Shown in pieces: positions 8,897 through 47,901 of a stretch of DNA of 50,936 nt. Position 1 is the stretch's first letter. Each line of letters opens with the position of its first letter. A model generated the notes under the pieces. The model saw only the letters and a list, made by a program, of their open reading frames with translations. It had not been told where the DNA came from and did not search any database. This DNA comes from an uncultured Methanosarcinales archaeon (GTDB taxonomy: Archaea; Nanobdellota; Nanobdellia; Woesearchaeales; GW2011-AR9), in contig CAYTOG010000002.1 in the NCBI GenBank assembly GCA_964439765.1, positions 1 to 50,936 of the forward strand. The letters are read 5' to 3'. The translations under genes and the position numbers were made by a program.

Positions 8897-8999
8897 AAAG
8901 AATCAATAATAATTATTTTGCTTTTTTTATTTATTCACATTAATTATTTATGTTAATTTATATTTGGAGGGCGTGTGGTAGCGTTAAGAGGGAAGAATA

Positions 9000-15910: not shown

Positions 15911-16045
15911 TTTTCCCTCTTAATAAGTTATATTTGAATTGAAATTGCTATTTTATATGAACATGAGTAAATTTAAATTTAAATAACTTTTGATTAGAAT
16001 TCTCTTCCAAAACACTTAAAAAACACCCCTTTTCTGAATAGGTTT

Positions 16046-16543
16046 ATGGCTAATTGTCCAGTATTTTGTGGGATGTATGAGATATGGAAATCACAAGGAG
16101 ATATTCTTGTAGAGAATGACGTAGCGTATGCTATTTTCACTCGGCGAGATATTATAACACCAGGTCAAGTTCTTCTTGCACCAAAGCGCCATGTTGATAG
16201 GTTACGAGATTTAACAGATGCTGAATGTGGTGGTTTGATCAGTCGTTTGATTCCATCTGCCTTTGATGCAATTCAAGAAATCTATCAAAGGGATTCAGAG
16301 AAAATAGTTGCTTTTTATGAGAAATTGCGTGATGGATCTGATAATCTCAGTTCTAAGTCAGCTATAGAAATTCTTGATAATCCTTGGCTGAGTGTAATGC
16401 CAGAAGGGTACAATGCTGGCGTTAATCGATATCATGTTGCAGGACAACGTATGGCACATTTACATTGGCATTTGGTTCCACGTAGAACAGGAGATGGAAA
16501 TAATTTAGGTTTCCAGACCGGTTTAAAACAACTTTTAGGATAA
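16046..16543 (+). CDS. HIT family protein
   Basis: Histidine triad HLHWHLVPR near the C-terminus. Confidence 0.7.
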   Translation: MANCPVFCGMYEIWKSQGDILVENDVAYAIFTRRDIITPGQVLLAPKRHVDRLRDLTDAECGGLISRLIPSAFDAIQEIYQRDSEKIVAFYEKLRDGSDNLSSKSAIEILDNPWLSVMPEGYNAGVNRYHVAGQRMAHLHWHLVPRRTGDGNNLGFQTGLKQLLG

Positions 16544-16588
16544 AAATTTTACACAAGAAAAAAAAAGAAAAAAGTTTTCTTATTCTCA

Positions 16589-16984
16589 TCAATACAAGAT
16601 TACATACAACCCAATTATAGAAAATATAAGCCATCCAGCTGCAATCCATCTAAATTGATTTGCTTTGAACTTTGATATTGCTTTAATCCATCCATCCCAC
16701 ATGCTTTTTTGTGAGAATAATAGGCCAAACATTAACGCATACAAAGTCATTCCAGCTACAAACCACTCAGCGAAACTCATATCTGAAATATATGAAAAGT
16801 ATGCTAATACAAGGCCAAATATAGCTATGCACCACACCGCTAGTTTTTGATTGTTCACAAATGCTTTTAGAATTTTGTTCTTTTTGTAATCAAGTAATGT
16901 TTTTGGTGAGATCAAACCCACTATCATCTTTAACATTCCAATACCTAATAGGACTATTGCAACCCATTCTATTGTTGTTACCAT
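16589..16984 (-). CDS. multi-pass membrane protein
   Basis: 131 aa with four hydrophobic helices. No family recognised. Confidence 0.4.
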   Translation of the reverse strand: MVTTIEWVAIVLLGIGMLKMIVGLISPKTLLDYKKNKILKAFVNNQKLAVWCIAIFGLVLAYFSYISDMSFAEWFVAGMTLYALMFGLLFSQKSMWDGWIKAISKFKANQFRWIAAGWLIFSIIGLYVILY

Positions 16985-17030
16985 AACAGAAAAGAATATT
17001 ATTTAGGTTTTTAAATATTTGGAGTTATTA

Positions 17031-17717
17031 TCAAAGCATCTTATCTACAGTTGCATCAACAAATATCTTCATAGTATCAAATATCTTTAATTTTGGATGC
17101 TTTGGTATCAATAATTGCAAATCTGTACAAGCAAGCGCTACACAATCAACATTTTTATTTTCAAAATTGTTAATAATTTTCACTAATCTATCTCTATCCT
17201 TGTTGTTTTGTTGACCCATAACTAAGTTGTGAATAAATTTCCCAAGCTTTGCTTGTTCTAAACTGTTTGGTGTTGCATAACTGATTTTAGCTTTTTCAAA
17301 CGCAGTTTCATACAATTTGTTTTCAATAGTAGCTGATGTTGACACAATACCCACTTTTTTGTATTTCTTTTTCTTCATGAATTTTACTGTTTCTTCAATT
17401 ATGCTAAGAACTGGAATTTTCACTGCTTTTCTAATGTCTTCAATGAACACATGTAATGAATTACAAGGCATAACTAGAAAATCAGCTCCTGCTTTTTCTA
17501 ATCGTTTTGCTTCTGCTACAAGGAAAGGAATGTATCTTTTTGATCCTTTGTTTTTCATAATCAAATCTTCTTCTATTTTGTATGGCAAAGGCACGCTTGA
17601 AATAATTATTCCTGGCCTTGTTTTTTTAGATTTTTTTTGACAAGAAAAAATTAGATCTAAATAGAACTCTGATGTTGTTTCTGGTCCAAGACCACCAATT
17701 ATTCCAACTGTTTTCAT
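17031..17717 (-). CDS. aspartate/glutamate racemase family protein
   Basis: IGGLGPETT N-terminus and both catalytic Cys motifs (VMPCNSLH, ALACTDL). Confidence 0.8.
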   Translation of the reverse strand: MKTVGIIGGLGPETTSEFYLDLIFSCQKKSKKTRPGIIISSVPLPYKIEEDLIMKNKGSKRYIPFLVAEAKRLEKAGADFLVMPCNSLHVFIEDIRKAVKIPVLSIIEETVKFMKKKKYKKVGIVSTSATIENKLYETAFEKAKISYATPNSLEQAKLGKFIHNLVMGQQNNKDRDRLVKIINNFENKNVDCVALACTDLQLLIPKHPKLKIFDTMKIFVDATVDKML

Positions 17718-17830
17718 TATAAGTTTGCTTGTTTGTTGTTATTTAAATTTATTGATTAGTATTGTTATGTATCTTTCCCACCTTTGGTAGAACAAATGCT
17801 TTAAAAAGAATATAGTTTATTATTTGTTTT

Positions 17831-18169
17831 ATGGCAGAAATAACTTGGAAAGATTTTGAAAAAGTTGACCTTAGGGTGGGTACAATCACCTCAGTTGAAG
17901 ATTTTCCCGAAGCTCGTAAGCCTGCGTATAAATTATTGATTGATTTTGGTCCTGAAATTGGTATTAAGAAATCTAGTGCACAGATTACAACACATTATTC
18001 TAAAGAAGATTTACTTGGCAAACAAGTTCTTTGTGTATGTAACTTTCCACCACGGCAAATTGGACCATTTATGTCTGAAGTTCTAACAACTGGTTTCATC
18101 AAAGAAGATGATACAGTAATACTTGCAAGCCCAGAAAGGAAAGTTGAGAATGGTTTGAAGCTAGCTTAA
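17831..18169 (+). CDS. tRNA-binding domain protein (CsaA/EMAP-like)
   Basis: 112 aa. [23 protein letters not shown] pattern of CsaA-type OB-fold proteins. Confidence 0.75.
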
Positions 18170-18226
18170 TGTTTATTTCGATGTTTACCCAACAACTTAA
18201 TAAATAACTAGTTTTCTTTTCTTTTT

Positions 18227-18643
18227 ATGAGGCGAGGAAGAATACCAAAAGTCTATGGTCAATCCATGGTGAACAGTTGTCCTTTCTGTGGTAAAGTAGC
18301 TACTGCAAAATCTGAACAAGGCGCTGATGTTTGTAGTAAACACACTAAAACAATGCTTGTGAACGCTAAATGTAATTGTGGTGATTATATTGATTTGCTT
18401 TCTGGCAAATATGGCCCATACTTTAATTGCTTAAAATGTGGAAATGTGAATTATCAAAAAGGTCTTGATATGTGGAGGGCCAGCGGTGCTGCATTTGAAG
18501 AAGATGGTGCTATTTCTAAAAAAGATGCACGTGAAGAGTTTAAACGTAAATTTGGTGCTAAGAAACCTTTTGGTTCTAGAAATACTGGTTCTAAGAAAAA
18601 AGAAATAGTTATTACAAGTCGGGACAGTTATTATTTTGATTAG
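18227..18643 (+). CDS. zinc-ribbon protein (topoisomerase-type C4 finger-like)
   Basis: CPFCG...C and CNCG....GKYGPYFNCLKCGN resemble zf-C4_Topoisom units. Basic C-terminal tail. Confidence 0.45.
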   Translation: MRRGRIPKVYGQSMVNSCPFCGKVATAKSEQGADVCSKHTKTMLVNAKCNCGDYIDLLSGKYGPYFNCLKCGNVNYQKGLDMWRASGAAFEEDGAISKKDAREEFKRKFGAKKPFGSRNTGSKKKEIVITSRDSYYFD

Positions 18644-19275
18644 TTATCTTCTATAAGTATTGCTCTTGCTGGTGCGGCATCAATTCCTTTAACAGCAAGT
18701 GGTAAACACACAAAGTAATATCCTTTTGATTTTACTTCTTTTAACCTTAAACCTTCAATAATTGGAATGTCTGCAGCTAAAAGAGTTTTATGTGCTATGT
18801 GAGAAACATTTCCCCTTTCAATTCCAAGGTAATCAATTCCAACTGCTTTGACTTTTTTTTCTTTTAGATGTTTTGCAGCACTTGAAGTTAGATATACAAA
18901 CTCAGAATCAAATTTGTCTGTTTCAGTGTGAAGACTGTTTTTTGTCTTTAGGAGAATGATTTGTCCTCTTTTAATTTTGTGCTTTTTCAAATCTGTTGAT
19001 GTAATACGTCTTTTTATCTTTGTTAAATCTAATACTCTTGAATTCCCTATAAATTTCTGCAATGCTTCCTCTTCAATTGTTTTTCCTTTTCTTAGAAAAT
19101 GACTTGGAGCATCAATATGGGTTCCTGTGTGAGATGAAAGTGTTATCCTTGTTTCTCGTTTATGATCTGTGTGATATGTTTTACTTGGATGAACATTAAA
19201 TAAAGATCTATTTCTATAGCTTGTTGACTTTTTTGTGAGTGGCCAACTGATGTCAATTATTGTTTGTTTCTTCAT
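18640..19275 (-). CDS. cyclase family protein / kynurenine formamidase-like
   Basis: HTGTHIDAPSHF metal-binding motif. Its 4-nt overlap with the gnd stop suggests co-transcription. Confidence 0.7.
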   Translation of the reverse strand: MKKQTIIDISWPLTKKSTSYRNRSLFNVHPSKTYHTDHKRETRITLSSHTGTHIDAPSHFLRKGKTIEEEALQKFIGNSRVLDLTKIKRRITSTDLKKHKIKRGQIILLKTKNSLHTETDKFDSEFVYLTSSAAKHLKEKKVKAVGIDYLGIERGNVSHIAHKTLLAADIPIIEGLRLKEVKSKGYYFVCLPLAVKGIDAAPARAILIEDN

Positions 19276-20270
19276 TTTCTTCTCTTAGTTGTTTTCTTTT
19301 CCTTCTTCGCCTTCAGAGCATGTCCACCAAACTCATTACGTACAGCATTGATTACCTTTCCACGAAAACTTGGCTTTTCTCTTGACTCTGCCCTTTCAAT
19401 TACAGCACCACCTATTGCATGATAATGGACTTTGAGAACTTTCGCTTCATCTAAAGCCCAATTAGCTTCTGCTTTCACTGCCTTCCCTGCTGATTTGCCA
19501 CCTTGTCCTGCAGCTCCAGAAACACCCTCTAGTTTATCACCATGTTTTGTAAATGCTCTTATCATCATTTCCATCAACTTTGATTCAATAATCGAACCAT
19601 GTTGATACACAGAAGAAACTTTCTTCAAATTTGGTTTAAATTTAGACTTCTTTAGTATCTCAAAACCCTCAGCTAAAGATTCCATAACACCATATTCAAT
19701 TCCATTATGAACCATCTTCACATAATGGCCTGCTCCAGCTCCTTCAAAGTGTTCAACACCACAAGGAACACAAATACTTTTGAACAATGGTTGAAGATAA
19801 CTGAACTGTGATTTTTTCCCACCAACCATCATACAAGCACCATGCCTTGCACCATTTGGTCCTCCTGAAACTCCAACATCAACAAAATGTATCCCTTTTT
19901 TACTAAGATATTTTGCCCTTCTTGCAGCATCTTTGTAAATTGAGTTTGATCCATCGATAACTATGTCTCCACGTTTTAAGTAAGGAATAATTTTTTTAAG
20001 TTTTGATTCAGTTATTTCTCCTGCCGGTAGCATTAACCAAATAATTCTTTTAGTTTGTTTTCTTCTTTTGATTGTTGCATTAAGTTTTGTAAAAAGTTCA
20101 TCTAGATTAAACGCATCTATTGCTCCATGACTCTTCGCTTTAAGAATAGGATCTTTAGACCTGTTTGTTACAACAACAGTATGGCCTTTTTTGACCATAT
20201 GGCATGCCATGTTAAGGCCCATTTTTCCAAGCCCAATATATCCTATTACAAATTTTTGTGTTTTTTCCAT
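19272..20270 (-). CDS. gnd: 6-phosphogluconate dehydrogenase, decarboxylating (short YqeC/Gnd-like form)
   Basis: IGLGKMG Rossmann motif, IDGSNS, DVGVSGG, MMVGG and GAGHYVKMVHNGIEYG. Confidence 0.8.
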   Translation of the reverse strand: MEKTQKFVIGYIGLGKMGLNMACHMVKKGHTVVVTNRSKDPILKAKSHGAIDAFNLDELFTKLNATIKRRKQTKRIIWLMLPAGEITESKLKKIIPYLKRGDIVIDGSNSIYKDAARRAKYLSKKGIHFVDVGVSGGPNGARHGACMMVGGKKSQFSYLQPLFKSICVPCGVEHFEGAGAGHYVKMVHNGIEYGVMESLAEGFEILKKSKFKPNLKKVSSVYQHGSIIESKLMEMMIRAFTKHGDKLEGVSGAAGQGGKSAGKAVKAEANWALDEAKVLKVHYHAIGGAVIERAESREKPSFRGKVINAVRNEFGGHALKAKKEKKTTKRRK

Positions 20271-27389: not shown

Positions 27390-30300
27390 TTACAATTCAT
27401 CCTTGCGTTTGTGGTAGATAAATGATGCTACACCTATTGTTACAATGATGATTATAGCAACTGCAATTAACAGAGTTTGCATATCAACGTCTAACTCAAA
27501 AGCTGCTTCTTCAATTGGTATTGTTGATTCGTCTTCAACAGCTTCTGTCTCTTCTGCTAATTCTTCAGTTTCGTCTTCAGCTGTTTCTTCTACAACAATT
27601 CTGTTTTCAACAACTGAATCTGTATACGCTATTGCAAAATAACTAAATCCAGGTGTTTCTGCAACATATGTATAACCTGAAGCTGATTCTTCTGTGAGGT
27701 AAGTTGTTAGCTCAACCCATGCGTCGTCAACAAAACGATACATTGCAACATGGCTACCATCAGTCCCTGTTTCACTCAACCAGCTTTTGCTTACTTCAAA
27801 CTCAATTTCAACATCTTCTAAGACTTCTTCAGTTAGTGTTGTGACTGTTGTTATTTGGAATCTGCTGTAAGTATCTACTGCATCATCCCCACCAACTTCA
27901 CCAACACTACTTGGGAATTCTTCTTGTATTGAAACTTTAAGGTAAGGCCCATACACTGTTTCAGTTACATCAAAAGTAATTTCTGAGATTGCAATATTAT
28001 CACTATCTACAGTCATTACAACAGGGTCTGTTGTTTCTAATGATGTCCAAGTTGTTTGACTGGTGTCATCGGAACTACTTGTTGTACCTGAATTGGTTGT
28101 TGCTCCGCCACCGCCACCTCCTCCTGAAGAAGAGGATGAGGATGAAGATGAACTACTACTGCTTGAAGAGCTTGAACCTGAATCTGGTTCTCCACCTGCC
28201 CAATTGGAAAACTCACAGTAAGGAAGACGCCATATACAATAATCTGATCCAGTTTCCATTAGTGTTGATTCTGTTGTCCTATCAACACAAGTGTCTAAAT
28301 CATCATTACAATGCCAAAGTTCATCACATGTTCCAACTCCTGGTATCTTTAATGTACAAGTTTCTGGGTATAGGTTGTTTACAATTTTATCTCTTGTTGC
28401 TGAAATCATTCCAGCATATCCTATTGTGTTCCCTGACGCATCAGTTGTTGTTCCAGATCCCAAAGCATCACTGTCCCCAATATCTCTTATCTTTCTACCA
28501 AAACCAGTTTTTGTTAGACTTGTACCATTGAATTCAATCCATGTTGTGTTATCACTTTTTGCAAGTAAGATAGAACTTCTCCTACCATCTGTGTAATTTG
28601 TTTTCATTCCTGCATTTTCTCCACAAACTGAACCTTGTATATGTTCATATACATTGTCTTGATCAAGGTCGTAACTTACATCCCAACCTGTTGGTGCTTC
28701 AATTCTACTAATGAAGTCACAGAATGCACAAGTTGCATCTGTTTCTGTTTTTAGTTCCGTACATTTACTGATTCCACATTTGTTCTGATCATCACATACT
28801 TCAATTCTAAAGTAATATGATGTGTCAGGTTCTAAATTAGAACTAAGAGAGTATATTCCAGCATCATTATAGATTTCACCAACATGAGGCAGCCTATATT
28901 CTCGAATACTGCTACTTGTTACACCCCTATCATAAATAATTGTATCTAAAATAGTACAAGTATTATCAGCACCATAAAAGTGCAATGTTCCATTTGCTGG
29001 TTTATCAGTTATGTACACTATTAATGCACTATCTCGGTATAATTCTTTACTAATTGCAACAACCTTTGGAGTTCTTGTATCTTCATATCCAGTTGCATGA
29101 ACTCCGAACTTATTTGCCGTACAATATGGGTGGTTGTAACATGAATACTCAGCGCAACCAGCTTCTGTCCAACAATCAGCTGTAAATTCAATATATCCCT
29201 TACTTGCTTTATCTTGCCCATAGTTACTTCCATTTGATTTCTTTGAAAGATCTAATGTATCAAGACTAAAGTCTACTGAACCTGGTGTTACAAAACCTGG
29301 CGATGCTGTATCACTTGGGTTTGTTATGTTCATTGATTCATTAGCTGTTGCTACTTCAACTCTAATATCAATTCCTGGCGTGTACAAATCAGGATATGTA
29401 CTCAAGTCATCTTTATCTATTGCGAGCATTCCACCGCCAATTTCTACACACATTTTCTGATTAAAGGCAGTTGCTTTAACTGGTGTTGTAACCCAATTTC
29501 CATCACTACAACGGTATACTTGAGATTGTTCGGTTGCTACACTATTAGTTCCACTCCAAGTGCTCACAAATGTTGCATAAAATTCGTAACCAACAGCACT
29601 TTCATTATCTTTTTTCGCGCAGCCACCTGTTCTATCACCATCAGTATCCAAATACCAATAATATTTCGTAGCATCCATACCAACAGCACTATTTCCAAAC
29701 ATTTTTACTCCATTACATATCGCAGCTTGACCCATATCAACAACTTGAATTCCAAAGCCAAAAGCATCTCCTAGATCTTTCATTCCAAAACTTATGATGT
29801 CTATGGAATCAGGAGTAGCGTCACCTACACTGTCTGACCCAAGCATAGTTATGGTTCCACCTTCCATGTTTTCAAAGTACTTTGCAGCCATGGCTCCACT
29901 ACACCATCCACCAATCCATTTACAAACAGATGTATTTGTTCCAGTATAATTGAATGATTCACATGATTGGCTATCATCCCCACTGACAAAACAAATTGAT
30001 TCACATATCTCTGCTTTACTATTCCAAGCGCAATGTGTTTCTTCGTCACAAGATGTACTGTTTTCTGCAGTCATACATGAAAATGCTTTTTGTTCACAGA
30101 AACTTCCAAAACTATTCCAGCTACAACTATCAATACTTTCGCAAGTTGTTTGATTAGTAGTATATTGTTGACAATTATCTCCTAATTTAATGTCACAGAA
30201 TGGACTTCCTTCACTAAACCAACCACATCCATTTGTCTCATCACATCCTGTTTGATTTCCATCATATAGTTTACAATCTAAACCATTTCCAGAGTATCCA

Positions 30301-33300
30301 CCATCATCTCCGCCTACTCCTGCATTAGTAGTTGAACCAAATCCTGGAGGATCACAAAATCCTGAAACCCAATTACAACCAATTCCTTCACAACCAGTTT
30401 GATCATTTTTATTCCAACATGAATCAGTTCCTGATGTTACACCTTCGCACCAACTGTCACCCCATTCATTAGTACTCCAATTACACCATTCAGAATTTGT
30501 TGCATTCGTACAAACTGATGAAGATTCATATTGCCAACATGAAAATTTGGAATGGTCACAATAACCTGCATCTTCTCCTTGTGATGCACACCAGCTATCT
30601 TCCATCCAATTACATGGTTTTGCACCATTGCCATCAGCTGTCCCTGCATCTTCACAAGTTGCTGATCCATCACTATCATGTTGTATACAATTATACCATT
30701 CTCCTTCATATGTCCAATCAGGATCACAATAACCTCCTGATTCACTACACCAATCATCAATCATCCATGTGCAATCTGCTATTTCAGAACAAGATGTTGA
30801 ATTTTCAGCATTGAAACAGCTGCTAAAACTTGCATCATCCCAATTTTCTTCACACATTCCACCAAAATCACTATGCCAAACACACCCTGATGCTTCACAA
30901 AATGTTTGATTTGTTCCATCATGGCTCCAACAGTCACTTCCTGGGATATCACACCAACTTCCCCATTGTTCATCAATCCATGTACAATTTCCACTTCCTG
31001 TATCTGTTGTTATACATGTTGCTTCTTCACTTTTTCCAAAGCACTCTTGCCCAACTCCAACAAGTCCACCACCACAAAATGGATCACTATAACACATTGA
31101 ATCTGCACAATCAGTTTTTCCATCATTATTGTTATCTATTCCATCAAAACAGAACTCCATTTGGTCTGCTCCTTGACTTGGTTGACATTTAATTGTCTCT
31201 GTATCACTCCAACTACATTGTGCAGCTAATGCAGAGTCGCCTTTTTTATTTCCATATTGTGTACATTGACTTTGGGAATCACATTTTAAACAACTATCTG
31301 CACAAGTCTTCTCGGATTCTGATGCGCAACGTCCTTTACTTTCATCAGTTGGATAATCTAAATTTACTATCCACTGACAATTTGCATCACTATTTTTACA
31401 GAAATATGATGGTTTATTTGTCTTATCTGCAGCTGTTGAATCTCCCATATGAGTACAACTTCCACAATCTTCATTACATGTTCCAGCAATTCCTTGGACA
31501 AATTCATCTTTTACATTACAAGATCCTAAACCATTTGGCGCAGTTGTATCACTTGTGTACTCACAAAATCCTAAATTTGATCCAACACATGCACTTTTGA
31601 AATCTGTTGCACTACTCCAATTAGTTCCATCTGTTTGATATTCACAAGCATAACATTCTTTGTTACAATTACGTTCTTCATCAAACTTAAGTTCACATCT
31701 TCCCGCAGGAATTGCTATATCTCCTTCACAGTAACTTTCAACAACCCAAATTCCACCTGCGTATTCACAGCTTTGTTCGTTATCAACATAAATTAAGTTC
31801 TCTCTTCCTTCAGTAAATATCTTATCTAGCCTTGCTTCACAATGTTCTGTTCCGTTATTCCACTGACATGGCATATACCATGGAGCACCTGAAATCTGTA
31901 AACAAAGGTCGTCGTCATCGTATGCGTTATAATCTTCACAGAAGCTTGCCCCATCTGGTGGAGTATCAATATCATCGTAGCAATTTGCACTAAATTGATC
32001 TTTTGCACAACTTGATCCTTGCCAGCTACAACAACTGCTCAATGCTGCAATGGAATTACAAAGGCCTGTCGCATTAATGTCGGTACAAGTTAGACCACTT
32101 TCTGAGATTGTTGCATTTGAATTACAAGTTCCTCCCGACCAACTACATCCTTCTGTTTCCCCACATGATGTCTCATTAAAATCAAATATATAACACCCAG
32201 GATTCCATTCTGTATGTATGTTAATTATTCCTAAATCTGCATAAGTAGAACAACTTGATGATGAACTATTCCATGAACATCCATAATCATAACATTCTTT
32301 TTCACTGTTAACATCAGAACAACTTCCAGAGGTTACATCTTCATAACACCAACTTCCATCGGCTTCCCAAGTACATGTTAATCCTGCTGCGTTGTTTACA
32401 CAAGAGTCTTCATCACTTCCATCAAAAGACCAGCACCTAGTTTCTTCACACCAACCAGTTGATGTTGAAGTCTCCCATTTACAATTGCCATTTGCATCAC
32501 AACTGTTTGCATCATCAAAATTCCAACATCCTCTATCATTACAGTAAGGGTCACTCCAAGAACACTCCAAACTATTTGTATTATTTACACAAGCAGTTCC
32601 GTTAGTATAACTAAAATCACTACACCAATAATCTGAACAATATCCATTATCCCATCGACAACTATTGCTTTCACAGGCAGTAGAATTTGTATAATCCCAA
32701 CATCCAGCTTCAGAACAGTATTCATATTGAGTGTTCCATACACAAGTGTTACTGTTATATCCTGTTGCTGCTTCACATGTTGTTTTTGTTGATTGGTCCC
32801 AACAACCTTCTTGATAACAATCTCCCCAAGTACAACCATCTATTGCTGTACAAGCAGAATCTGTTGTTTGTTCCCAACAACTTTTTTCCCATGGGCCCAT
32901 ACAAGGGAATTGGTTATTGTCAGCGTTATAAGTATCTTCCCATACACAAGAAAGTCCTTGAGAGTTGCTTTCACAAGCTGTTTGGTTTGTTCCACCAAAA
33001 GACCAACATTGAACTTCAGTACACCAACCAGAATCAGAAGAACTTTTCCAAGTACATGTTTTGTTTAAATAAGAATCACTTGAAGAATCGTTTGAAGCTT
33101 CACATGCAGTTTGTCCCCATTGAGACCAACATTGTTTTTCTTCACACCAAGATCCCCATGGGTCAGTTTTCCATTTACAATCAGAATTATCTTCACATGT
33201 GGATTCGGTGGAAAAATCCCAACAACTAGAAGACATCGTTGATACTGGCAATCCACCAGAATCAAATTCCGCAACTGCTAACCCAGTTATAGAATTCCCT

Positions 33301-33419
33301 GAATCGAACATTGTTAAGAGGTCTGAATTGCTATCAAGCAAGTTCATTCCGATAAAACCTCCAAGAATAAAAACTACTGCAATTAAGAAAAATACTTTAT
33401 GCGTTCGATCCATACTCAC
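27390..33419 (-). CDS. giant cysteine-rich, membrane-anchored surface protein
   Basis: 2009-aa ORF. Has an N-terminal signal/TM helix, about two dozen 4-Cys modules (C[WYF]..C..CxW..C), a poly-Ser/Gly linker, a PGF-pre-PGF-like domain ending ETPGFSYFAIAY, an acidic spacer, and a C-terminal TM plus KRK. The ORF-track start is GTG 33419; the in-frame ATG at 33413 lies 7 nt after GAGGTG and is the likelier start. Confidence 0.85.
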   Translation of the reverse strand: MSMDRTHKVFFLIAVVFILGGFIGMNLLDSNSDLLTMFDSGNSITGLAVAEFDSGGLPVSTMSSSCWDFSTESTCEDNSDCKWKTDPWGSWCEEKQCWSQWGQTACEASNDSSSDSYLNKTCTWKSSSDSGWCTEVQCWSFGGTNQTACESNSQGLSCVWEDTYNADNNQFPCMGPWEKSCWEQTTDSACTAIDGCTWGDCYQEGCWDQSTKTTCEAATGYNSNTCVWNTQYEYCSEAGCWDYTNSTACESNSCRWDNGYCSDYWCSDFSYTNGTACVNNTNSLECSWSDPYCNDRGCWNFDDANSCDANGNCKWETSTSTGWCEETRCWSFDGSDEDSCVNNAAGLTCTWEADGSWCYEDVTSGSCSDVNSEKECYDYGCSWNSSSSSCSTYADLGIINIHTEWNPGCYIFDFNETSCGETEGCSWSGGTCNSNATISESGLTCTDINATGLCNSIAALSSCCSWQGSSCAKDQFSANCYDDIDTPPDGASFCEDYNAYDDDDLCLQISGAPWYMPCQWNNGTEHCEARLDKIFTEGRENLIYVDNEQSCEYAGGIWVVESYCEGDIAIPAGRCELKFDEERNCNKECYACEYQTDGTNWSSATDFKSACVGSNLGFCEYTSDTTAPNGLGSCNVKDEFVQGIAGTCNEDCGSCTHMGDSTAADKTNKPSYFCKNSDANCQWIVNLDYPTDESKGRCASESEKTCADSCLKCDSQSQCTQYGNKKGDSALAAQCSWSDTETIKCQPSQGADQMEFCFDGIDNNNDGKTDCADSMCYSDPFCGGGLVGVGQECFGKSEEATCITTDTGSGNCTWIDEQWGSWCDIPGSDCWSHDGTNQTFCEASGCVWHSDFGGMCEENWDDASFSSCFNAENSTSCSEIADCTWMIDDWCSESGGYCDPDWTYEGEWYNCIQHDSDGSATCEDAGTADGNGAKPCNWMEDSWCASQGEDAGYCDHSKFSCWQYESSSVCTNATNSEWCNWSTNEWGDSWCEGVTSGTDSCWNKNDQTGCEGIGCNWVSGFCDPPGFGSTTNAGVGGDDGGYSGNGLDCKLYDGNQTGCDETNGCGWFSEGSPFCDIKLGDNCQQYTTNQTTCESIDSCSWNSFGSFCEQKAFSCMTAENSTSCDEETHCAWNSKAEICESICFVSGDDSQSCESFNYTGTNTSVCKWIGGWCSGAMAAKYFENMEGGTITMLGSDSVGDATPDSIDIISFGMKDLGDAFGFGIQVVDMGQAAICNGVKMFGNSAVGMDATKYYWYLDTDGDRTGGCAKKDNESAVGYEFYATFVSTWSGTNSVATEQSQVYRCSDGNWVTTPVKATAFNQKMCVEIGGGMLAIDKDDLSTYPDLYTPGIDIRVEVATANESMNITNPSDTASPGFVTPGSVDFSLDTLDLSKKSNGSNYGQDKASKGYIEFTADCWTEAGCAEYSCYNHPYCTANKFGVHATGYEDTRTPKVVAISKELYRDSALIVYITDKPANGTLHFYGADNTCTILDTIIYDRGVTSSSIREYRLPHVGEIYNDAGIYSLSSNLEPDTSYYFRIEVCDDQNKCGISKCTELKTETDATCAFCDFISRIEAPTGWDVSYDLDQDNVYEHIQGSVCGENAGMKTNYTDGRRSSILLAKSDNTTWIEFNGTSLTKTGFGRKIRDIGDSDALGSGTTTDASGNTIGYAGMISATRDKIVNNLYPETCTLKIPGVGTCDELWHCNDDLDTCVDRTTESTLMETGSDYCIWRLPYCEFSNWAGGEPDSGSSSSSSSSSSSSSSSSSGGGGGGGATTNSGTTSSSDDTSQTTWTSLETTDPVVMTVDSDNIAISEITFDVTETVYGPYLKVSIQEEFPSSVGEVGGDDAVDTYSRFQITTVTTLTEEVLEDVEIEFEVSKSWLSETGTDGSHVAMYRFVDDAWVELTTYLTEESASGYTYVAETPGFSYFAIAYTDSVVENRIVVEETAEDETEELAEETEAVEDESTIPIEEAAFELDVDMQTLLIAVAIIIIVTIGVASFIYHKRKDEL

Positions 33420-41218: not shown

Positions 41219-41644
41219 GTGAGGAAAAGGATGGTTACATTTCAGTTTGTCCCGTTTCATGAAGTAAGGGAATTAGATTCTTCCAAAAGAGTTCAAAAAC
41301 TCTTTAATATTGTGAAGAATCAAAAAATAGTAGTTATGGAAGGGCGACTTCGTAAAGACGAAGAAACTGCACTTATTGAACATACAATGAATCAAGTTAG
41401 TAAAGCATTTCCTGGAATTGAACTTGGAGTTATTTATCCAGATAAAAGTAAAATTTTAGGAATAGAAAAACTAAAAGAATCAATGTTGAAGTTTTTTTTA
41501 GGTGACAGACAAGGCTTCACTGTAATTGGGCCAGCCTCTATTGTAAAGAGGATTGTTAGAAACCCTGGAAAATTAGAACTATTCACAACTGACAACGGTG
41601 TTAAACGAAAAGTTAAACGCCGACGTACTAAAAAGAAAAAGTGA
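41219..41644 (+). CDS. DUF2073-like protein (archaeal GTPase-associated)
   Basis: 141 aa directly after the GTPase and before a Zn-ribbon protein, the arrangement recalled for archaeal DUF2073/DUF2072. An alternative ATG start lies at 41231. Confidence 0.5.
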   Translation: MRKRMVTFQFVPFHEVRELDSSKRVQKLFNIVKNQKIVVMEGRLRKDEETALIEHTMNQVSKAFPGIELGVIYPDKSKILGIEKLKESMLKFFLGDRQGFTVIGPASIVKRIVRNPGKLELFTTDNGVKRKVKRRRTKKKK

Positions 41645-41650
41645 TAAATA

Positions 41651-42034
41651 ATGCCACACCAATGCGTTCGATGTAGTACCTTATACCCAGATGGTGCACA
41701 AGAAATTTTGAAAGGGTGTAATTGTGGTGCTCGCTTATTTTTCTATGTTAAACAAAAACACGTTAAAGAAGGTAGTGAACTAATTAATAAATTGTCTTCT
41801 TCAGAAAAAGAACAAATTGAAGGTGACATCTTAGAGATTGCAAGAGTTCGTAATGAATCAAAAGATCCTAACGCACCAGTTATTCTAGATTTCGAATCCA
41901 TTCGTATTATGAAACCTGGGAAATATGAACTTGATCTTGTTTCTATTTTCAAAAATGACCCACTAGTCTTTAAACTCGAAGAAGGAAAATATGTTATTGA
42001 TATTATGCAAGCGTTTAATAAAAAAGATAATTGA
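41651..42034 (+). CDS. Zn-ribbon protein (DUF2072-like)
   Basis: N-terminal C..C....C.C ribbon (CVRCSTLY...CNCG), and the last gene of the GTPase trio. Confidence 0.55.
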   Translation: MPHQCVRCSTLYPDGAQEILKGCNCGARLFFYVKQKHVKEGSELINKLSSSEKEQIEGDILEIARVRNESKDPNAPVILDFESIRIMKPGKYELDLVSIFKNDPLVFKLEEGKYVIDIMQAFNKKDN

Positions 42035-42980: not shown

Positions 42981-43006
42981 GGAAGATTGGTTCATAGTGG
43001 TTTATG

Positions 43007-43116
43007 CGCCGGTAGTTTAATGGCTAGAATCCCGGCCTTCCATATGAAGGCTGGCAGCTTTACTGCCTTGCTTTGAAGCAAGCCGGTGATCCGGGTTCAA
43101 ATCCCGGCCGGCGCAC
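43007..43116 (+). tRNA. tRNA-Gly (anticodon UCC) with a 38-nt intron after position 37
   Basis: Hand-folded. Acceptor stem GCGCCGG/CCGGCGC plus discriminator A; D arm GTTT/GAAT; anticodon stem CCGGC/GCCGG; loop C-T-TCC-A; T arm CCGGG-TTCAAAT-CCCGG. The intron spans 43044-43081. A 4-bp helix CTTC (43038-41)/GAAG (43076-79) is flanked by 3-nt bulges carrying both splice sites (BHB-like). Confidence 0.8.
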
Positions 43117-43119
43117 TCC
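43106..43119 (+). repeat. att direct repeat, left copy (inside the tRNA 3' end)
   Basis: CGGCCGGCGCACTC, identical to 47888-47901. Confidence 0.8.
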
Positions 43120-43126
43120 CTTTCTA

Positions 43127-43160
43127 TTCCGATGCGCTACCACATGTTTAACAGAATTAT
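43127..43160. repeat. terminal inverted repeat, left
   Basis: ATTCCGATGCGCTACCACATGTTTAACAGAATTA. Its reverse complement matches 47840-47873 at 27 of 34 positions ungapped, with perfect 13-bp and 9-bp arms. Confidence 0.7.
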
Positions 43161-43196
43161 ATATACTTTTAGCCGTCTGCTATGAGGTAACGGAAA

Positions 43197-44465
43197 ATGG
43201 CAGAAGACGATATTTACAAAAGCAAAGCAAAATATGAAAGATTGATTTCTATTATGGATTCTTGGGTTCTAACGCCTGATTGTTACAAAGGCAGAGGGTA
43301 CAGAAAGTATTACATCAAGTACAAAGATAATCTCAAATATTTCTATAAGTTGCTTCCAATTTGGGAAATGAAGGATTTGAGCTACATTAGAAGGATTCGA
43401 TTGCTCAATGTAATGCTAATGATTTGCTTTGTACCTGAAAAAGACTTGAAGGATTGTAATCGTGATGATATTAACGAAATCATGGGATTTATGCATACTT
43501 GTCATAAAACAATCAAAAGTAAATCAGATTTTATTAAAAATCTCAAATGTCTATGGAGAGTATTGTTTCCAGATATTGATCAATTCGGACGAGCTGATGA
43601 AACATTGATACCTTATGTTGTAAGACATCTGTCTGGAAAAATTGATAAGAGCAAACAAAAAAGGCGTAATGAGAAATATACCATAGAAGAATTTCAAAAA
43701 ATAGTTCAATTCTTTGATAAGGATCCAAAGGTTCAAGCTTATATCACTGCCATACATGAGACATATGTAAGACCACAGGAATTATTGTACTTGAAAATTC
43801 AGGATTTGGAGTTCTATGATAATTATGGGATTGCTAATGTCTCTTCTCATGGAAAAGAAGGATGTAAACCAATTCAATTTGAAAATCTTTCATATCCTTA
43901 CTTGTGTAAATGGTATCATCAACACCCTTTGAAAAATGATCCTGAGGCATATTTATTCTTAGGAGAGAGCAATAATAATAGGTACAAGCAATTAGGAATC
44001 TCAGCTATGAACAAGAAAATCTCTCATGCCTGTAAGGTGCTTGGGATCAATAAGCGCATTACAAGTTATACTTTCAAGAGGATGGGAATTACAATTGATC
44101 GGATGAATGGTGTTTTGGATAAAATTATTATTTCAAAAGCAGGTTGGACTTCAGGGAAACAGTTGTCTACTTACGATCTTGGTTCTCGTAAAGAAGGTTT
44201 GCGGATGTCTCTGATTTCAAAAGGTTTGGTTACAGCAGAATCATTTGATGAGAAAAGATTTCAACCAAAGCAAAAGCATTGCAGTTTCTGTCAATATGTG
44301 AACGCCTACGCAGATAATCTTTGTGGTGGATGTCATCGGCCACTCAATCGTGAACATATGCAAGAGATGGAGCAGAGTCATCAGAAGCTAATGAGTAATG
44401 AGTTGTTGTCTCGGATCGATAAGTTGGAGACAGCGTTGACTGAGAAGCTGGAGGAAAGCGTGTAA
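43197..44465 (+). CDS. tyrosine recombinase / integrase with C-terminal zinc ribbon
   Basis: YVRPQELLYLKIQDL (box I Arg), GKEGCKP hairpin Lys, TFKRMG, AGW and STYDL (candidate nucleophile Tyr), then C..C...C..C. Lies 80 nt from the tRNA. Confidence 0.75.
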   Translation: MAEDDIYKSKAKYERLISIMDSWVLTPDCYKGRGYRKYYIKYKDNLKYFYKLLPIWEMKDLSYIRRIRLLNVMLMICFVPEKDLKDCNRDDINEIMGFMHTCHKTIKSKSDFIKNLKCLWRVLFPDIDQFGRADETLIPYVVRHLSGKIDKSKQKRRNEKYTIEEFQKIVQFFDKDPKVQAYITAIHETYVRPQELLYLKIQDLEFYDNYGIANVSSHGKEGCKPIQFENLSYPYLCKWYHQHPLKNDPEAYLFLGESNNNRYKQLGISAMNKKISHACKVLGINKRITSYTFKRMGITIDRMNGVLDKIIISKAGWTSGKQLSTYDLGSRKEGLRMSLISKGLVTAESFDEKRFQPKQKHCSFCQYVNAYADNLCGGCHRPLNREHMQEMEQSHQKLMSNELLSRIDKLETALTEKLEESV

Positions 44466-44533
44466 AAAATTAAAAGTAAATAAATTAAAAAAAAAATGTT
44501 GGTAAATTTCCTGCTACCAACAGATTGTTAAAA

Positions 44534-44680
44534 TTATTTTGCCAACCAAGCTAATTGTAAAATTACCCCTAAAGATAGAAGGAGTCCTGATCCAGCGATT
44601 CCTCCAAGAAAGCCCACACTTCCAAGTGCAAGTAAAATCGTTGGTGGATTTTTTGCGATAATTTTCACAGTTGTCTTCAT
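44534..44680 (-). CDS. small hydrophobic peptide (48 aa), below the ORF-track cutoff
   Basis: Hand-translated as MKTTVKIIAKNPPTILLALGSVGFLGGIAGSGLLLSLGVILQLAWLAK. Its ATG is 1 nt after the stop of the upstream 216-aa ORF. Confidence 0.35.
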   Translation of the reverse strand: MKTTVKIIAKNPPTILLALGSVGFLGGIAGSGLLLSLGVILQLAWLAK

Positions 44681-44681
44681 T

Positions 44682-45332
44682 TTATTTGACCTTAAATCTA
44701 CTAGCTTTACAATTCAAATTAATTGCTTCAATATCTTCATGGGTTTTATTTTTCCAGAAATTTTCAATTACTTGGTTTCTTTCATTCAGATAATTGTGTT
44801 GTTTATCATTCTTTTTCATCTTGATTAATTTAGCAAAAACTTTATTTGCAAGAATGAGTCTAAGTTTTTGTAAATCTTCATCAAGATAACTATCTCGTTT
44901 TTCTTTTCCATAAATAAAATTTACCGCCTCTCCTTTATGATTTGTTAATCTGAAAAATGGTACAACTCTTCCGTTACCTATTTTCTGTACAAATCCATAT
45001 GGGATTAGCCATACTTTGAACGTTCTGCCTATTTTGTTTCTCTTTAAGCCAAGTTCATTTGCAACTTTAGTTATAGTTATGTCTTTCTCTTGTTTTGACA
45101 TTTCCAATACTTTCTTGTAAACTTCTTTGATGAAATTCACATCTGCTCTAGGGTGCTCTTTCATGATTACATCTACTTTGTTCTCTATCATAGTATTCTC
45201 CACAAGAAGTAGTGCCACAAAAAGAAAATCTTTTAAAGATGCTCTCTTTTTCAATGTTTGTGACGTTGCTGTAAATACTAATTTAATTAGTGTTTGCAGT
45301 GACACTTTTCTTGATTTAGTTTTAAAGATCAT
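44682..45332 (-). CDS. hypothetical protein with probable (w)HTH DNA-binding segment
   Basis: The ITITKVANELGLKRNKIGRTF segment looks like helix-turn-helix. The true start is uncertain, with internal Met residues at codons 48 and 57. Confidence 0.4.
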   Translation of the reverse strand: MIFKTKSRKVSLQTLIKLVFTATSQTLKKRASLKDFLFVALLLVENTMIENKVDVIMKEHPRADVNFIKEVYKKVLEMSKQEKDITITKVANELGLKRNKIGRTFKVWLIPYGFVQKIGNGRVVPFFRLTNHKGEAVNFIYGKEKRDSYLDEDLQKLRLILANKVFAKLIKMKKNDKQHNYLNERNQVIENFWKNKTHEDIEAINLNCKASRFKVK

Positions 45333-45533
45333 TGAGTTAATTTCATTTATAAGCTTTATTGTCGTTTCGACCTGAATAAGTGGTAAATTTTGGAGACATC
45401 GTCTAAATCAAAGAAATTTTCTGTTTTTAGACAGTCACTATCCAAAAGATACGAATGTAGAAATAACTGTAAAAACCACCAAAAGTACCTCATCCAACAA
45501 AGAAAGATAAGATAAAAGCCTATATAAAATTTG

Positions 45534-45668
45534 TTAACTATAATAAGGTAGTAAGAAACCTCTCCTCACCAACTCCGCAATACTTTTCCCTTGTCTCTTT
45601 GCTTCATAGCGTAGTCTTTGATCTTCTTCTGGCGTTACCCTAATTCCAATGAATCGTTTACGTGACAT
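45534..45668 (-). CDS. ribbon-helix-helix (CopG/MetJ-like) protein, 44 aa, below the ORF-track cutoff
   Basis: Hand-translated as MSRKRFIGIRVTPEEDQRLRYEAKRQGKSIAELVRRGFLLPYYS. Shows a beta-strand (IGIRV), helix, G-x-S/T turn, helix pattern. Confidence 0.55.
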   Translation of the reverse strand: MSRKRFIGIRVTPEEDQRLRYEAKRQGKSIAELVRRGFLLPYYS

Positions 45669-45670
45669 TA

Positions 45671-45775
45671 TCAAACCTCTTGAATCCTCTGTTCCGCTGC
45701 ATCAAGAATTGCCTTAATTTCTCTGTGCATCCAAGAGCGAATTTCTGTTATCTGTTTGTGTTTTGTCCAGTTCAT
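45671..45775 (-). CDS. 34-aa mini-ORF upstream-coupled to the RHH gene
   Basis: MNWTKHKQITEIRSWMHREIKAILDAAEQRIQEV. Its TGA is 2 nt before the RHH ATG, and an AT-rich TATA-like ATAAATATT lies about 30 nt upstream. Coding status is unproven. Confidence 0.25.
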   Translation of the reverse strand: MNWTKHKQITEIRSWMHREIKAILDAAEQRIQEV

Positions 45776-45851
45776 GATAGAATATGTATTACAAATCTAA
45801 TATTTATATCTTGTAAACCCCACAGGCTACAATGCAAAAACAGCCATTTCT

Positions 45852-46252
45852 AGACATGTGTTTTTTCACTATTTTTGAGATTCTTCTCGTCGTAGAAGAA
45901 ACAGGAAAAAAGCCAAATTAGTCACCAGCTATAACAGGTGTTTGCAGAGTGGTGCCTAATTTGAGATTTAGAAGAAAAGAGAAGAATTTATCGTATTTTT
46001 GGACACCTGTTTTTTCGTGAAAAATTTTGGTCTTGTTGTCGTAGAAAGACTATGAATCAAGTGAATTAGTCACCCCTAATAAGAGATGTTGGAAGTGGTG
46101 GTGACTAAAAAGAGATCAGCAAAAAATCTCGTTTTTGGCCACAAGGATTTTCGCTAAAATCAAGAATTTTCTCGTCGTAAAGAACATAGAAAAAGCTCAA
46201 AAAAGTCACTGACTATAAGGCATGTTTGATAGGGTGGTGACAAGTTTGAGAT
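45852..46252. repeat. three degenerate tandem repeats (periods 149 and 136 bp), each with an internal inverted repeat
   Basis: Conserved blocks in each unit are GTTTTTTC / TCGTCGTAGAAGAA-like / TTAGTCACC ... GGTGACTAA / TTTGAGAT. Stem positions: unit 1 45918-26 and 45951-59 (one mismatch), unit 2 46066-74 and 46100-08 (perfect 9 bp), unit 3 about 46204-09 and 46236-41 (degenerate). Confidence 0.75.
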
Positions 46253-46276
46253 AAAAAAATGAATTAACTCAAGAAT

Positions 46277-47707
46277 TTATTTCATTTTGAAAATATAAAC
46301 TTCCTTCCTCTCTGGTCCTACCTGTGCAAAAAGGTTTCCATGTGCAGCATATACTGCATCACAAATTACATCCATTGAAGAATCCTGGGGATAACCTATG
46401 TGGAGTAAATCAAATCTACTTGGAAGTGGCCCATTAATTTGATCACGTCTTTTTGGCAATGTTGTTTCATTATAATGAGGTCTAAAAATTGCTTGCATAG
46501 GAGTTATACCAAACCCATCAAATATTGCTTGTACAACAAGGAAATTATCACCAAAAGCAAATTTACTAGAAGGATGAAGTGGCCCTAACCTATCTGTGTG
46601 TGTTTTCAAATCACCAAGATACTGTTGAGTTTGACCAGAATCATCTATCCCTGCAAGAATGTGGCCTCTTGGAAAATAGACATTTCCATCAAATGCTCCA
46701 AGCCGCATAGTCATATCATCCGCAGGACTCATTGCAAAAGAAGTTGGAAATGCCCCTTCATATTTTACTTCGTCTCCTGAATTAATTGAAATTACTTGAT
46801 GAACATGTGGTCTGTCCCTTCCGCCTTTTGAAACACTAAGAAATACCTGCCCATTAACAGCTAATGTATCGTGAATCCTAACTCCCCTTTCCAAAACTTT
46901 TTTTGTATCATACCTTCTTATAACTCCGCTTGCAGCATCTGGTCTTTGAAATGAATAAACTGTTGAATCTCCATCAGTTAAGACAACCATATTATTTGCT
47001 ACAGTAATTGAATGTTTTTGTGTAAGTTCTTCTATAAATCTGTGGAAACCTTTCCCAAATGCTTCTGGAAATTCAATTTCCCATCCAGCTATTCTTGAGC
47101 CTTCTCTGTACACAGAGAGATGACTATCCTTATCTAAAATGTACAGGTCTCCACTTTCATCAAAGGTTAATGCAATCGGTTCAGAATCAAGTTCTAGTGT
47201 CATTTCTAAACTAGCAGGATTAACTCTTCCTTGGTTTAATTGGTCTGCTCTTTGTCTATTAATCTCAAAACGTTCTTTCCCAGTATGTTGTAAATTTCTA
47301 ACATCTGACCAAGCATAACTAGCACTTTCTTTTTTATTCTTCAATTCCAAACAATATGCTACTGTTGCATGCGCTGTTTCTGGACCAAGAAGTTTTAATT
47401 CAATACCCCTTGTACCTCGAATAAATTGTCTGGCAGTCACTTCTCTTTGGACTAACTGGGCAGCAACTTTCTGTCCAACTTGATACTCATTAGTTGCCCA
47501 TCCACCATATACTGCAAGAAGAGGAGCTATTCTGATCAGATCTTCTGTTCCCATTCTTTCAATAACAGAATCATCCCATTCAAACCAACCATGTCCAAAT
47601 TTATGAGATCTGTGTCGTTCTGGTGCTAACTGAAAATGATCTACAAAGAATTTCCACTCATCTGGGTGATATGCTTGTTCACCTTTATGTGTTGGACATC
47701 TAACCAT
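46277..47707 (-). CDS. orphan 476-aa protein (element cargo)
   Basis: Long uninterrupted ORF that is visibly less Lys/Asn/Ile-rich and more Arg/His/Gly-rich than its neighbours. The C-terminal two-thirds looks beta-rich and repetitive. No family recognised. Confidence 0.6.
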   Translation of the reverse strand: MVRCPTHKGEQAYHPDEWKFFVDHFQLAPERHRSHKFGHGWFEWDDSVIERMGTEDLIRIAPLLAVYGGWATNEYQVGQKVAAQLVQREVTARQFIRGTRGIELKLLGPETAHATVAYCLELKNKKESASYAWSDVRNLQHTGKERFEINRQRADQLNQGRVNPASLEMTLELDSEPIALTFDESGDLYILDKDSHLSVYREGSRIAGWEIEFPEAFGKGFHRFIEELTQKHSITVANNMVVLTDGDSTVYSFQRPDAASGVIRRYDTKKVLERGVRIHDTLAVNGQVFLSVSKGGRDRPHVHQVISINSGDEVKYEGAFPTSFAMSPADDMTMRLGAFDGNVYFPRGHILAGIDDSGQTQQYLGDLKTHTDRLGPLHPSSKFAFGDNFLVVQAIFDGFGITPMQAIFRPHYNETTLPKRRDQINGPLPSRFDLLHIGYPQDSSMDVICDAVYAAHGNLFAQVGPERKEVYIFKMK

Positions 47708-47839
47708 ATGCCCTCAGGGTTTGGTTATTTTAAAAAGATATATGTTCTATTTTGAAATAATCTGTTTAATACCACAAATTATTTAATGTTAAACACTTTA
47801 CTTTTAACTAATAAACAAGACGATGGCTTTGGTTGCACA

Positions 47840-47873
47840 TAATTCTGTGTTACACATGTAAGCGCATCGGAAT
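47840..47873. repeat. terminal inverted repeat, right
   Basis: TAATTCTGTGTTACACATGTAAGCGCATCGGAAT, the partner of 43127-43160. Confidence 0.7.
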
Positions 47874-47887
47874 TCGGGGCGTCTGCA

Positions 47888-47901
47888 CGGCCGGCGCACT
47901 C
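47888..47901 (+). repeat. att direct repeat, right copy
   Basis: CGGCCGGCGCACTC, identical to tRNA positions 43106-43119. There is no T arm or the rest of a tRNA beside it. Confidence 0.8.

Follow-up and report, generated by a model that had tools for sequence, protein, structure and literature searches.

The stretch analysed here, positions 1 to 50,936 of contig CAYTOG010000002.1 (50,936 nt; hereafter the window), contains between 43105 and 47901 a block that we take, with a probability of about 0.75, to be mobile DNA of 4.8 kb that has integrated into the genome of a DPANN-type, AT-rich archaeon. The tRNA intron, the genes for ZPR1 and OapB/OapC and the lineage names that homologs bear point to such a host. 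The block starts in the 3' end of a tRNA-Gly gene, carries a tyrosine integrase gene just behind it and closes with an exact second copy of the tRNA end. Integrase-bearing, multigene, bounded by attachment (att) sites and free of viral, casposon or conjugative hallmarks, it is a new, unusually small member of the described class of archaeal cryptic integrated elements (CIEs; Krupovic et al., 2019; PMC6563490), probably a minimal and, as we infer, a non-autonomous one.

Element boundaries and the tRNA target

The features that delimit the element are:
43006-43115 (+): tRNA-Gly(UCC) gene with a 38-nt intron after the anticodon (Rfam RF00005, ARAGORN intron option); the integration target, its 3' end now supplied by attL
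43105-43118 (+): attL core, left copy of the 14-nt direct repeat CGGCCGGCGCACTC (exact match)
43126-43160: terminal inverted repeat, left arm (inverted-repeat search, shuffles, motif conservation)
43197-44465 (+): tyrosine integrase, 422 aa (PF00589, PHROG 1, homologs, alignment)
47839-47873: terminal inverted repeat, right arm (inverted-repeat search, shuffles)
47888-47901 (+): attR core, right copy of CGGCCGGCGCACTC (exact match)

The tRNA-Gly gene, named as the insertion target by the original prediction, is real and is the only tRNA gene of the window. The Rfam tRNA model RF00005 matched 43006-43115 (+) with 56.6 bits over model positions 1-71, the full model, and ARAGORN with introns allowed reported tRNA-Gly(tcc) i(36,38), in which the intron adjoins the anticodon. 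At its default settings ARAGORN missed this intron-containing gene and called no tRNA in the window; many other integrase-proximal tRNAs in related loci were probably missed likewise, and in two such loci (L005 and L006) a tRNA-like direct repeat is present with no tRNA called.

The 14-mer CGGCCGGCGCACTC had been predicted to lie at 43106-43119 and to recur exactly and in the same orientation at 47888-47901. Both the repeat and its right copy stand as described; the left copy belongs one nucleotide farther left, at 43105-43118. There are exactly two copies in the window, both on the + strand, and no third even when up to two mismatches are allowed. None of 100 dinucleotide-preserving shuffles contained a match, so that a chance recurrence is indeed very unlikely. 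With two mismatches tolerated the direct repeat reaches 19 nt. Of its 14-nt core, 11 nt are the end of the tRNA (the final 3 nt of the T-stem, all 7 nt of the acceptor 3' strand and the discriminator A) and 3 nt belong to the trailer, which agrees with the T-stem and acceptor span originally proposed. The far boundary of the element repeats the tRNA 3' end, and the tRNA itself is intact. Downstream of the attR core stands TTTTTATTC, plausibly the original oligo-T trailer of the tRNA-Gly gene.

The integrase and its family

The integrase open reading frame (ORF) begins 81 nt past the end of the tRNA, close to the 80 nt claimed for it, and its assignment as a tyrosine recombinase is secure: residues 164-326 matched PF00589 with 30.6 bits (cut-off 27.1), and PHROG 1 'integrase' matched with E = 5.8e-10. 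A homolog search yielded at least 140 full-length relatives of about 410-450 aa, the best 72% identical, which where named are from Woesearchaeota, Nanoarchaeota or an 'archaeon'. No member of the family was found in IMG/VR (2.9 million contigs).

In an alignment of 36 family members (alignment A1), residues R192, K220, Y291, K294, R295, W317 and Y326 are invariant, and all are present in the window integrase. The profile of this alignment matches XerA (PDB 5HXY) with E = 4.4e-6, and the family motifs RPQEL, HGKEG, YSLKR, W and Y align with RVGEL, GKGDK, HVLRH, H and Y of XerA. The integrase thus has the catalytic residues R192, K220, R295, W317 and Y326, with one deviant box, Y291-S/T-L/F-K294-R295, in which Tyr stands for His and the Arg is displaced by one position. 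Behind the catalytic Tyr follows an extension of about 95 aa with helices and a zinc ribbon, CxxC...CxxC (C362, C365, C376, C379), that is invariant in 36 of 36 integrases. At third codon positions the integrase gene has a GC content (GC3) of 0.34, the highest among window ORFs of at least 150 aa (others 0.13-0.29).

We fetched 80 metagenome loci with integrase relatives, 63 of which had enough upstream sequence to be tested. At least 29 of these 63 carry a + strand tRNA 60-150 nt upstream of the integrase, and the tRNA targets in the family include Gly, Ser, Leu, Glu and Val. Five relatives are in addition bounded by an exact downstream repeat of the tRNA 3' end:
L005: element of 7.3 kb, repeat of 15 nt
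L006: element of 8.7 kb, repeat of 17 nt
L065: element of 10.2 kb, repeat of 14 nt
L077: element of 7.9 kb, repeat of 36 nt
L081: element of 10.4 kb, repeat of 12 nt

A tRNA 3'-end repeat with an adjacent integrase is the norm in this family, and the layout that had been called classic for integrative elements is therefore borne out well beyond the window. In L005, a match to the Rfam RT-16 RNA (RF03019, 66 bits) lies at 417-559 (+), about 3 kb upstream of the integrase.

Terminal inverted repeats

Just inward of the two ends of the element stand the arms of a 35-nt inverted repeat with 80% complementarity, the longest in the region. It scored 17.5, compared with a maximum of 12.5 in 200 shuffles, and the inner 13 nt of its arms are perfectly paired (ATTCCGATGCGCT in the left arm with AGCGCATCGGAAT). 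The outer part of the left arm, ATGTTTAACAGAATTATATA, is kept ahead of the integrase genes of L089 and L002. There, as in the window element, the motif ATGTTTAACAGAATTWTATA, which is the outer half of the left arm, stands 30-45 nt upstream of the integrase start, and it is kept in elements that target tRNA-Leu and tRNA-Ser. The inner half of the left arm (CCGATGCRC), on the other hand, is common only to L011, another tRNA-Gly-targeting element. The left arm is probably an integrase-binding arm and/or a TATA-like promoter of the integrase gene.

Right after attL at 2030-2110 of L011 and at the left ends of L010 and L021, all at the same tRNA-Gly site, GGTGCAT...TAGTCCGATGCACA is tandemly duplicated. 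Each copy has GGTGCAT, which resembles the tRNA end, in inverted pairing with the motif ATGCAC(A/C)C, and such pairs may be core-type integrase sites.

Insertion sites and cargo of the relatives

The left flank of the window, with genes for OapB, OapC and ZPR1 followed by a related integrase, is also carried by L021 and L011, and an intron-containing tRNA-Gly(UCC) lies between ZPR1 and the related integrase in L021. L010 has the ZPR1 flank in common with the window. With the left flank shared and the integrases related, the same attB is thus in use in other organisms. In the window, the genes of the origin-associated proteins OapB and OapC are at 41219-42034 (+), directly upstream of ZPR1 and the tRNA-Gly target; since this trio stands beside the target, the insertion site may be close to the chromosomal replication origin.

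What the relatives carry behind the integrase varies widely. The nearest integrase, that of L089 (72%, in tRNA-Leu), has genes for a pyridoxal-phosphate (PLP)-decarboxylase-like and a LigT-like protein behind it. Of the integrases with long context, the closest, those of P0007 (67% identity), P0009/L002 (65%) and P0013 (57%), are followed by small ORFs and then by genes for a TrbC-like pilin, TrbL and a VirB4/TraC ATPase, for which reason we regard these elements as resembling integrative and conjugative elements (ICEs). VirB4/TraC genes occur also in L052 and L070, and PrimPol genes in L081 and L023. Defence genes are a further part of the picture. L021 has the BREX genes BrxL (a Lon-like protease) and PglZ at 15562-20194 (-), at most 10 kb downstream of the integrase; with no attR-like sequence within 10 kb, these genes could not be placed inside its element. 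Downstream of the integrase, type I restriction-modification genes are found in L026, a fused methyltransferase/restriction enzyme in L055, SNF2/ResIII helicases in L057 and Fic in L077, and AsnC-type regulators are among the cargo of other family members. Given the BREX, restriction-modification and helicase genes downstream of its members, the integrase family may mobilise defence systems in DPANN archaea.

The only cargo common to the window element and its relatives is a pair of small genes, encoding a ribbon-helix-helix (RHH) protein and a mini-ORF. Together with the integrase, this adjacent pair is the conserved backbone of a large family of tRNA-targeting elements in DPANN archaea.

Cargo genes and the repeat array

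The cargo list of the original prediction could be followed item by item, and the cargo genes are all on the - strand, convergent with the integrase:
44534-44680 (-): hydrophobic glycine-rich peptide, 48 aa; no family match
44682-45191 (-): winged-helix (wHTH) DNA-binding protein, 169 aa; 17 homologs, AlphaFold2 model
45534-45674 (-): RHH protein, 46 aa; PF21983 NikA-like
45671-45775 (-): mini-ORF, 34 aa, overlapping the RHH start by 4 nt; conserved in L002 and L019
45836-46262: three degenerate direct repeats (149, 136 and 142 nt), 76% column identity
46277-47707 (-): ORFan cargo protein of 476 aa (orf476); no homolog found

The RHH protein matches PF21983 NikA-like with 29.2 bits (cut-off 27), and ParD, CopG and RelB more weakly. 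Homologs were found in eight other related loci, usually directly after the integrase and on the opposite strand. The mini-ORF keeps its position relative to the RHH gene in L002 (59% identity over 34 aa) and L019 (44%), and on the P0009 contig the pair is divergent from the pilin operon.

For the wHTH gene, the mechanically called ORF of 216 aa extends to 45332. An exhaustive HMMER search found 17 homologs of about 170 aa that align from residue 48-50 on, so the 216-aa ORF is probably too long and the gene is likely 44682-45191. An AlphaFold2 model built with the 17-sequence alignment reached a pLDDT of 91.7. Comparisons with known folds and profiles (Foldseek against PDB and BFVD, PDB profiles) returned generic winged helices of the ArsR/MarR/TrmB type only, and the protein is a candidate regulator or replication/partition factor. 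The 48-aa peptide starts 2 nt after the stop of the wHTH gene, a spacing at which the two are probably translationally coupled; it had no family match in Pfam, PHROGs, NCBIfam or PADLOC. On L093, a wHTH homolog at 8001-8900 (+) belongs to a chromosomal island of a member of the Nanoarchaeia that also has toxin-antitoxin-like genes, a PD-(D/E)XK nuclease and a CfrBI-type restriction-modification system. Genes for membrane peptides of 79 and 44 aa come after this homolog, mirroring the order of wHTH protein and 48-aa peptide in the window.

The repeat array, originally put at 400 bp, measures about 427 bp in three units of about 142 nt and occupies most of a 500-nt non-coding gap upstream of the mini-ORF/RHH operon. 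Every unit contains the palindrome AGTCAC-N(22-32)-GGTGNC, which has four matches, all of them in the array, versus 0.04 expected. TRF did not detect the array, nhmmer found it in none of 88 related loci, and there were no comparable repeats beside the RHH genes of relatives. It had no Rfam match even at E <= 1, and its RNA folding z-scores are weak (-0.2 to -2.3), not clearly better than those of shuffles. A structured RNA is thus unsupported, and a role at the DNA level is likelier; the array is a candidate operator, origin or origin of transfer (oriT) region.

The largest cargo protein, orf476, resembles nothing that we could find. A word-seeded search of 5.8 billion proteins gave no homolog, Pfam, PHROGs, NCBIfam and PADLOC no family, phmmer against PDB nothing meaningful (best E = 1.5), and tblastn no match in phage (50,697 records) or plasmid collections; internal repeats were not found either. 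An AlphaFold2 model made without an alignment has a pLDDT of 37, and suggests, at this low confidence, a helical N-terminal third and a beta-rich remainder. The profile and structure checks proposed for the cargo have yielded a generic winged helix, a NikA-like RHH protein and, for orf476, no match.

Outside the element, the window also contains, at 27390-33419 (-), an ORF of 2009 aa without a Pfam domain; nowhere on the contig does tetranucleotide composition deviate more than in the sequence windows over it.

Searches for hallmark genes

Among the six element ORFs, only the integrase and the RHH protein were recognised in four hidden Markov model libraries (Pfam, PHROGs, NCBIfam and PADLOC). 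The earlier statement that no replication, capsid or transfer gene can be recognised holds in all four, which gave no Rep, primase, capsid, terminase or type IV secretion system (T4SS) gene. Nor does the element, unlike its relatives, contain a PrimPol, BREX or restriction-modification gene. In 43105-47901 there are no VirB4/TraC ATPase, pilin or mating-pair-formation genes as expected of an ICE, and tblastx against the relatives revealed no T4SS remnants. PHROGs recognised just the integrase, besides weak matches to repressors. Cas1 and PolB had no counterpart among the ORFs, and no relaxase was found with Pfam, PHROGs or NCBIfam. The type of the element, at first left undecided between plasmid, provirus and other forms, is thereby narrowed to a reduced representative of a family of DPANN integrase elements whose members include ICE-like, PrimPol and defence-island forms.

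Alternative explanations

Several observations weigh against reading the block as an integrated mobile element. An empty site was not found: in the five contexts of homologs of the flanking phosphopentomutase that we compared (L085, L086, L088, L090, L091), the nearest homologs are 53-60% identical and have other neighbours and no tRNA-Gly, and a scan of genome contigs with the phosphopentomutase gave no close relative, only an irrelevant clostridial match. The lack of an empty site may be ascribed to the loss of synteny at about 60% identity. In a collection of 15 billion proteins, which lacks two of the small element ORFs, the proteins of the element and its flanks are singletons at 90% identity that come from this contig only, and so no strain-level comparison is possible. 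The composition of the element is not distinct from that of its host, with a GC content of 0.346 versus 0.339 and tetranucleotides that rank 41 of 93 windows, and the GC3 of orf476 (0.19) is host-like as well. A compositionally foreign whole is thus not detectable, and these values are compatible with long residence or fixation. The inverted repeat is borderline in two of the five delimited relatives (L005, L006) and absent in the other three (L065, L077, L081). With YxxKR in place of the HxxR box, the catalytic competence of the integrase has to be judged from sequence, and what the RHH and wHTH proteins, the repeat array and orf476 are proposed to do is read from their positions only. We rejected chance and an assembly artefact because the direct and the inverted repeat both stand out statistically and relatives have the same architecture.

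Among the alternatives, it is conceivable, if on balance unlikely, that the block is a fixed remnant, i.e. the decayed derivative of a larger element such as a T4SS-bearing ICE of the same integrase family, which lost its conjugation and replication modules, kept captured or orphan cargo and is now an immobile genomic island. The closest relatives with long context are indeed T4SS elements with the same integrase and RHH/mini-ORF module, the window element has no transfer or replication genes, its overall composition and the GC3 of orf476 are host-like, and the empty site was not recovered. Against decay stand a full-length integrase ORF with every family-invariant residue, two 14-nt cores that have not diverged, a terminal inverted repeat that has been kept, small ORFs that are intact, and the absence of any sign of T4SS pseudogenes in tblastx. 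At odds with the data at several points is a minimal integrative plasmid whose excised circle would replicate itself, with the wHTH protein as initiator, the ~142-nt repeats as an iteron-like origin and the host replisome recruited to it. For this idea, which we consider doubtful, speak the confident fold and conserved 17-homolog family of the wHTH protein (HTH_36 matches in five of the 17 members), the unique non-coding three-unit array with its conserved palindromes, the weak RNA-folding scores that favour a DNA-level role of the array, and the initiator-type role proposed for the wHTH protein of a 2.6-kb thaumarchaeal element (PMC6563490). Yet Foldseek and PDB profiles point to generic ArsR/MarR-type regulators only (E > 0.01), the protein has a single wHTH domain with no Rep-like tandem and no specific Rep match, repeats of ~140 nt far exceed the usual iteron in length and are some 650 nt away from the wHTH gene, and the chromosomal restriction-modification/toxin-antitoxin island that contains the wHTH homolog P0131 shows neither an integrase nor repeats close to it.

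Similarly improbable is an integrative mobilizable element (IME) that hitchhikes on a related DPANN T4SS, with the NikA-like RHH protein and the palindromic repeats as its transfer-origin module. The RHH protein passes the Pfam NikA-like threshold and matches the accessory proteins MobA, TraJ and MbpA as well; a relative with a T4SS has the RHH/mini-ORF pair too, divergent from its pilin operon, and the repeat array of the window element sits at just that divergent position. Against this, there is no relaxase in the element, no T4SS element on the 51-kb contig and no such array in any relative, and since ParD, Arc, CopG and RelB match the RHH protein almost as well, it may just as likely be a plain repressor. 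In its fullest form, the proposal would make the element an archaeal IME or satellite of DPANN ICEs, composed of integrase, RHH/mini-ORF switch and repeat-structured transfer/replication origin and moved between ultra-small archaea by the T4SS of a related ICE, a scenario to which we attach little weight; that the lineage-unique 476-aa protein would then be the delivered cargo is just as speculative. Hitchhiking on a T4SS of this kind is to our knowledge undescribed in DPANN archaea, and a literature search brought up no report of it. Finally, a novel provirus or casposon-like transposon, or orf476 as an unrecognised capsid or virion protein, is very improbable indeed. A terminal inverted repeat with a 14-bp duplication at a tRNA end recalls casposons and orf476 matches nothing known, but Cas1, PolB and capsid, terminase or portal proteins found no match, IMG/VR contains no member of the integrase family, orf476 has no tblastn match in the phage records, a tyrosine integrase is present, and the duplicated sequence is the tRNA's own 3' end, restoring the gene as in site-specific recombination. 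With no hallmark gene, the casposon and provirus readings were rejected.

A model of integration and persistence

For an integrated mobile element of the CIE kind, the anatomy suggests that a circular form carrying attP recombined into the 3' end of tRNA-Gly(UCC) as attB, with the element's own tyrosine integrase as catalyst. The exchange would have taken place within the 14-bp identity CGGCCGGCGCACTC, which would account for the intact tRNA at attL and the 11-nt tRNA fragment at attR. The predicted attP junction is ...AGCGCATCGGAATTCGGGGCGTCTGCA|CGGCCGGCGCACTC|CCTTTCTATTCCGATGCGCT... (...GTCTGCA-CGGCCGGCGCACTC-CCTTTCT...), and the predicted attB junction is ...GGGTTCAAATCCCGGCCGGCGCACTC|TTTTTATTCTAAAGATT..., i.e. 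the tRNA followed directly by TTTTTATTCTAAAG. In attP, the 35-nt inverted repeats would flank the core, and are likely integrase-binding arms; as reconstructed, they would be placed around a 35-bp centre that holds the 14-bp core. The integrase gene would be left whole on integration, a non-'suicidal' behaviour of the pNOB8 type. The RHH protein most likely regulates the element via the neighbouring repeat region. The element would persist by integration, and probably by excision and reintegration, and its replication and cell-to-cell transfer would depend on the host or on a helper element.

Comparison with known elements

CIEs were defined for Thaumarchaeota, where they range from 2.6 to 98 kb with a median att length of 17 bp, and the smallest, the 2.6-kb NitUzo-E2, codes for two hypotheticals besides its integrase and a wHTH protein (Krupovic et al., 2019; PMC6563490). 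The window element, at the small end of this size range, shares with them the integrase adjoining attL, the short direct repeats (14 bp here, as against the median of 17), a tRNA target, which is common among CIEs, the lack of viral or conjugation hallmarks, and a content of wHTH and RHH regulators and hypotheticals. It differs in its DPANN-type rather than thaumarchaeal host, in an integrase of another family with a C-terminal zinc ribbon, and in the addition of 35-nt terminal inverted repeats, a three-unit array of ~142-nt repeats and the 476-aa ORFan.

Archaeal integrases of the pNOB8 type (type II, non-partitioning) have their att core outside the int gene, which stays intact after integration. 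By layout the window element is alike, with the att core outside int, a tRNA 3' end as target and integrase relatives that head conjugative elements. In contrast, its integrase has YxxKR for HxxR and the ~95-aa zinc-ribbon extension, and the element is without conjugation genes. The T4SS elements of DPANN archaea (P0007, P0009/L002 and P0013; also L052 and L070) are the nearest in kind. The integrases of the first three are 57-67% identical to that of the window, and the likeness extends to the position downstream of a tRNA, the int-proximal motif and, in L002, the RHH/mini-ORF pair. These elements, however, reach more than 10 kb past the integrase and have the TrbC-like pilin, TrbL and VirB4/TraC, none of which is found in the 4.8 kb of the window element. 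Bacterial IMEs (Guedon et al., 2017; PMC5704250) invite comparison as well: the window element, too, is small and integrase-bearing, has no mating apparatus of its own, and encodes an RHH protein that resembles relaxosome accessory factors. It differs in its archaeal host, in having no relaxase found and no demonstrated oriT, and in having no helper identified.

Significance

The element itself is a fairly ordinary archaeal genomic island, and none of the three leads that it offers would overturn current views. One is that it carries a 476-aa protein with no detectable relative. Another is that it might serve as the backbone of an integrative vector for a lineage that has no genetic tools, since its 4.8 kb have defined ends and combine an integrase and two small DNA-binding proteins with compact repeats. 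The third concerns the family: the element anchors a large and apparently little-described group of tRNA-targeting DPANN integrases with a C-terminal zinc ribbon, and, as a family that mobilises T4SS and PrimPol cargo and may mobilise BREX and restriction-modification genes, this group bears on gene exchange in genome-reduced symbiotic archaea.

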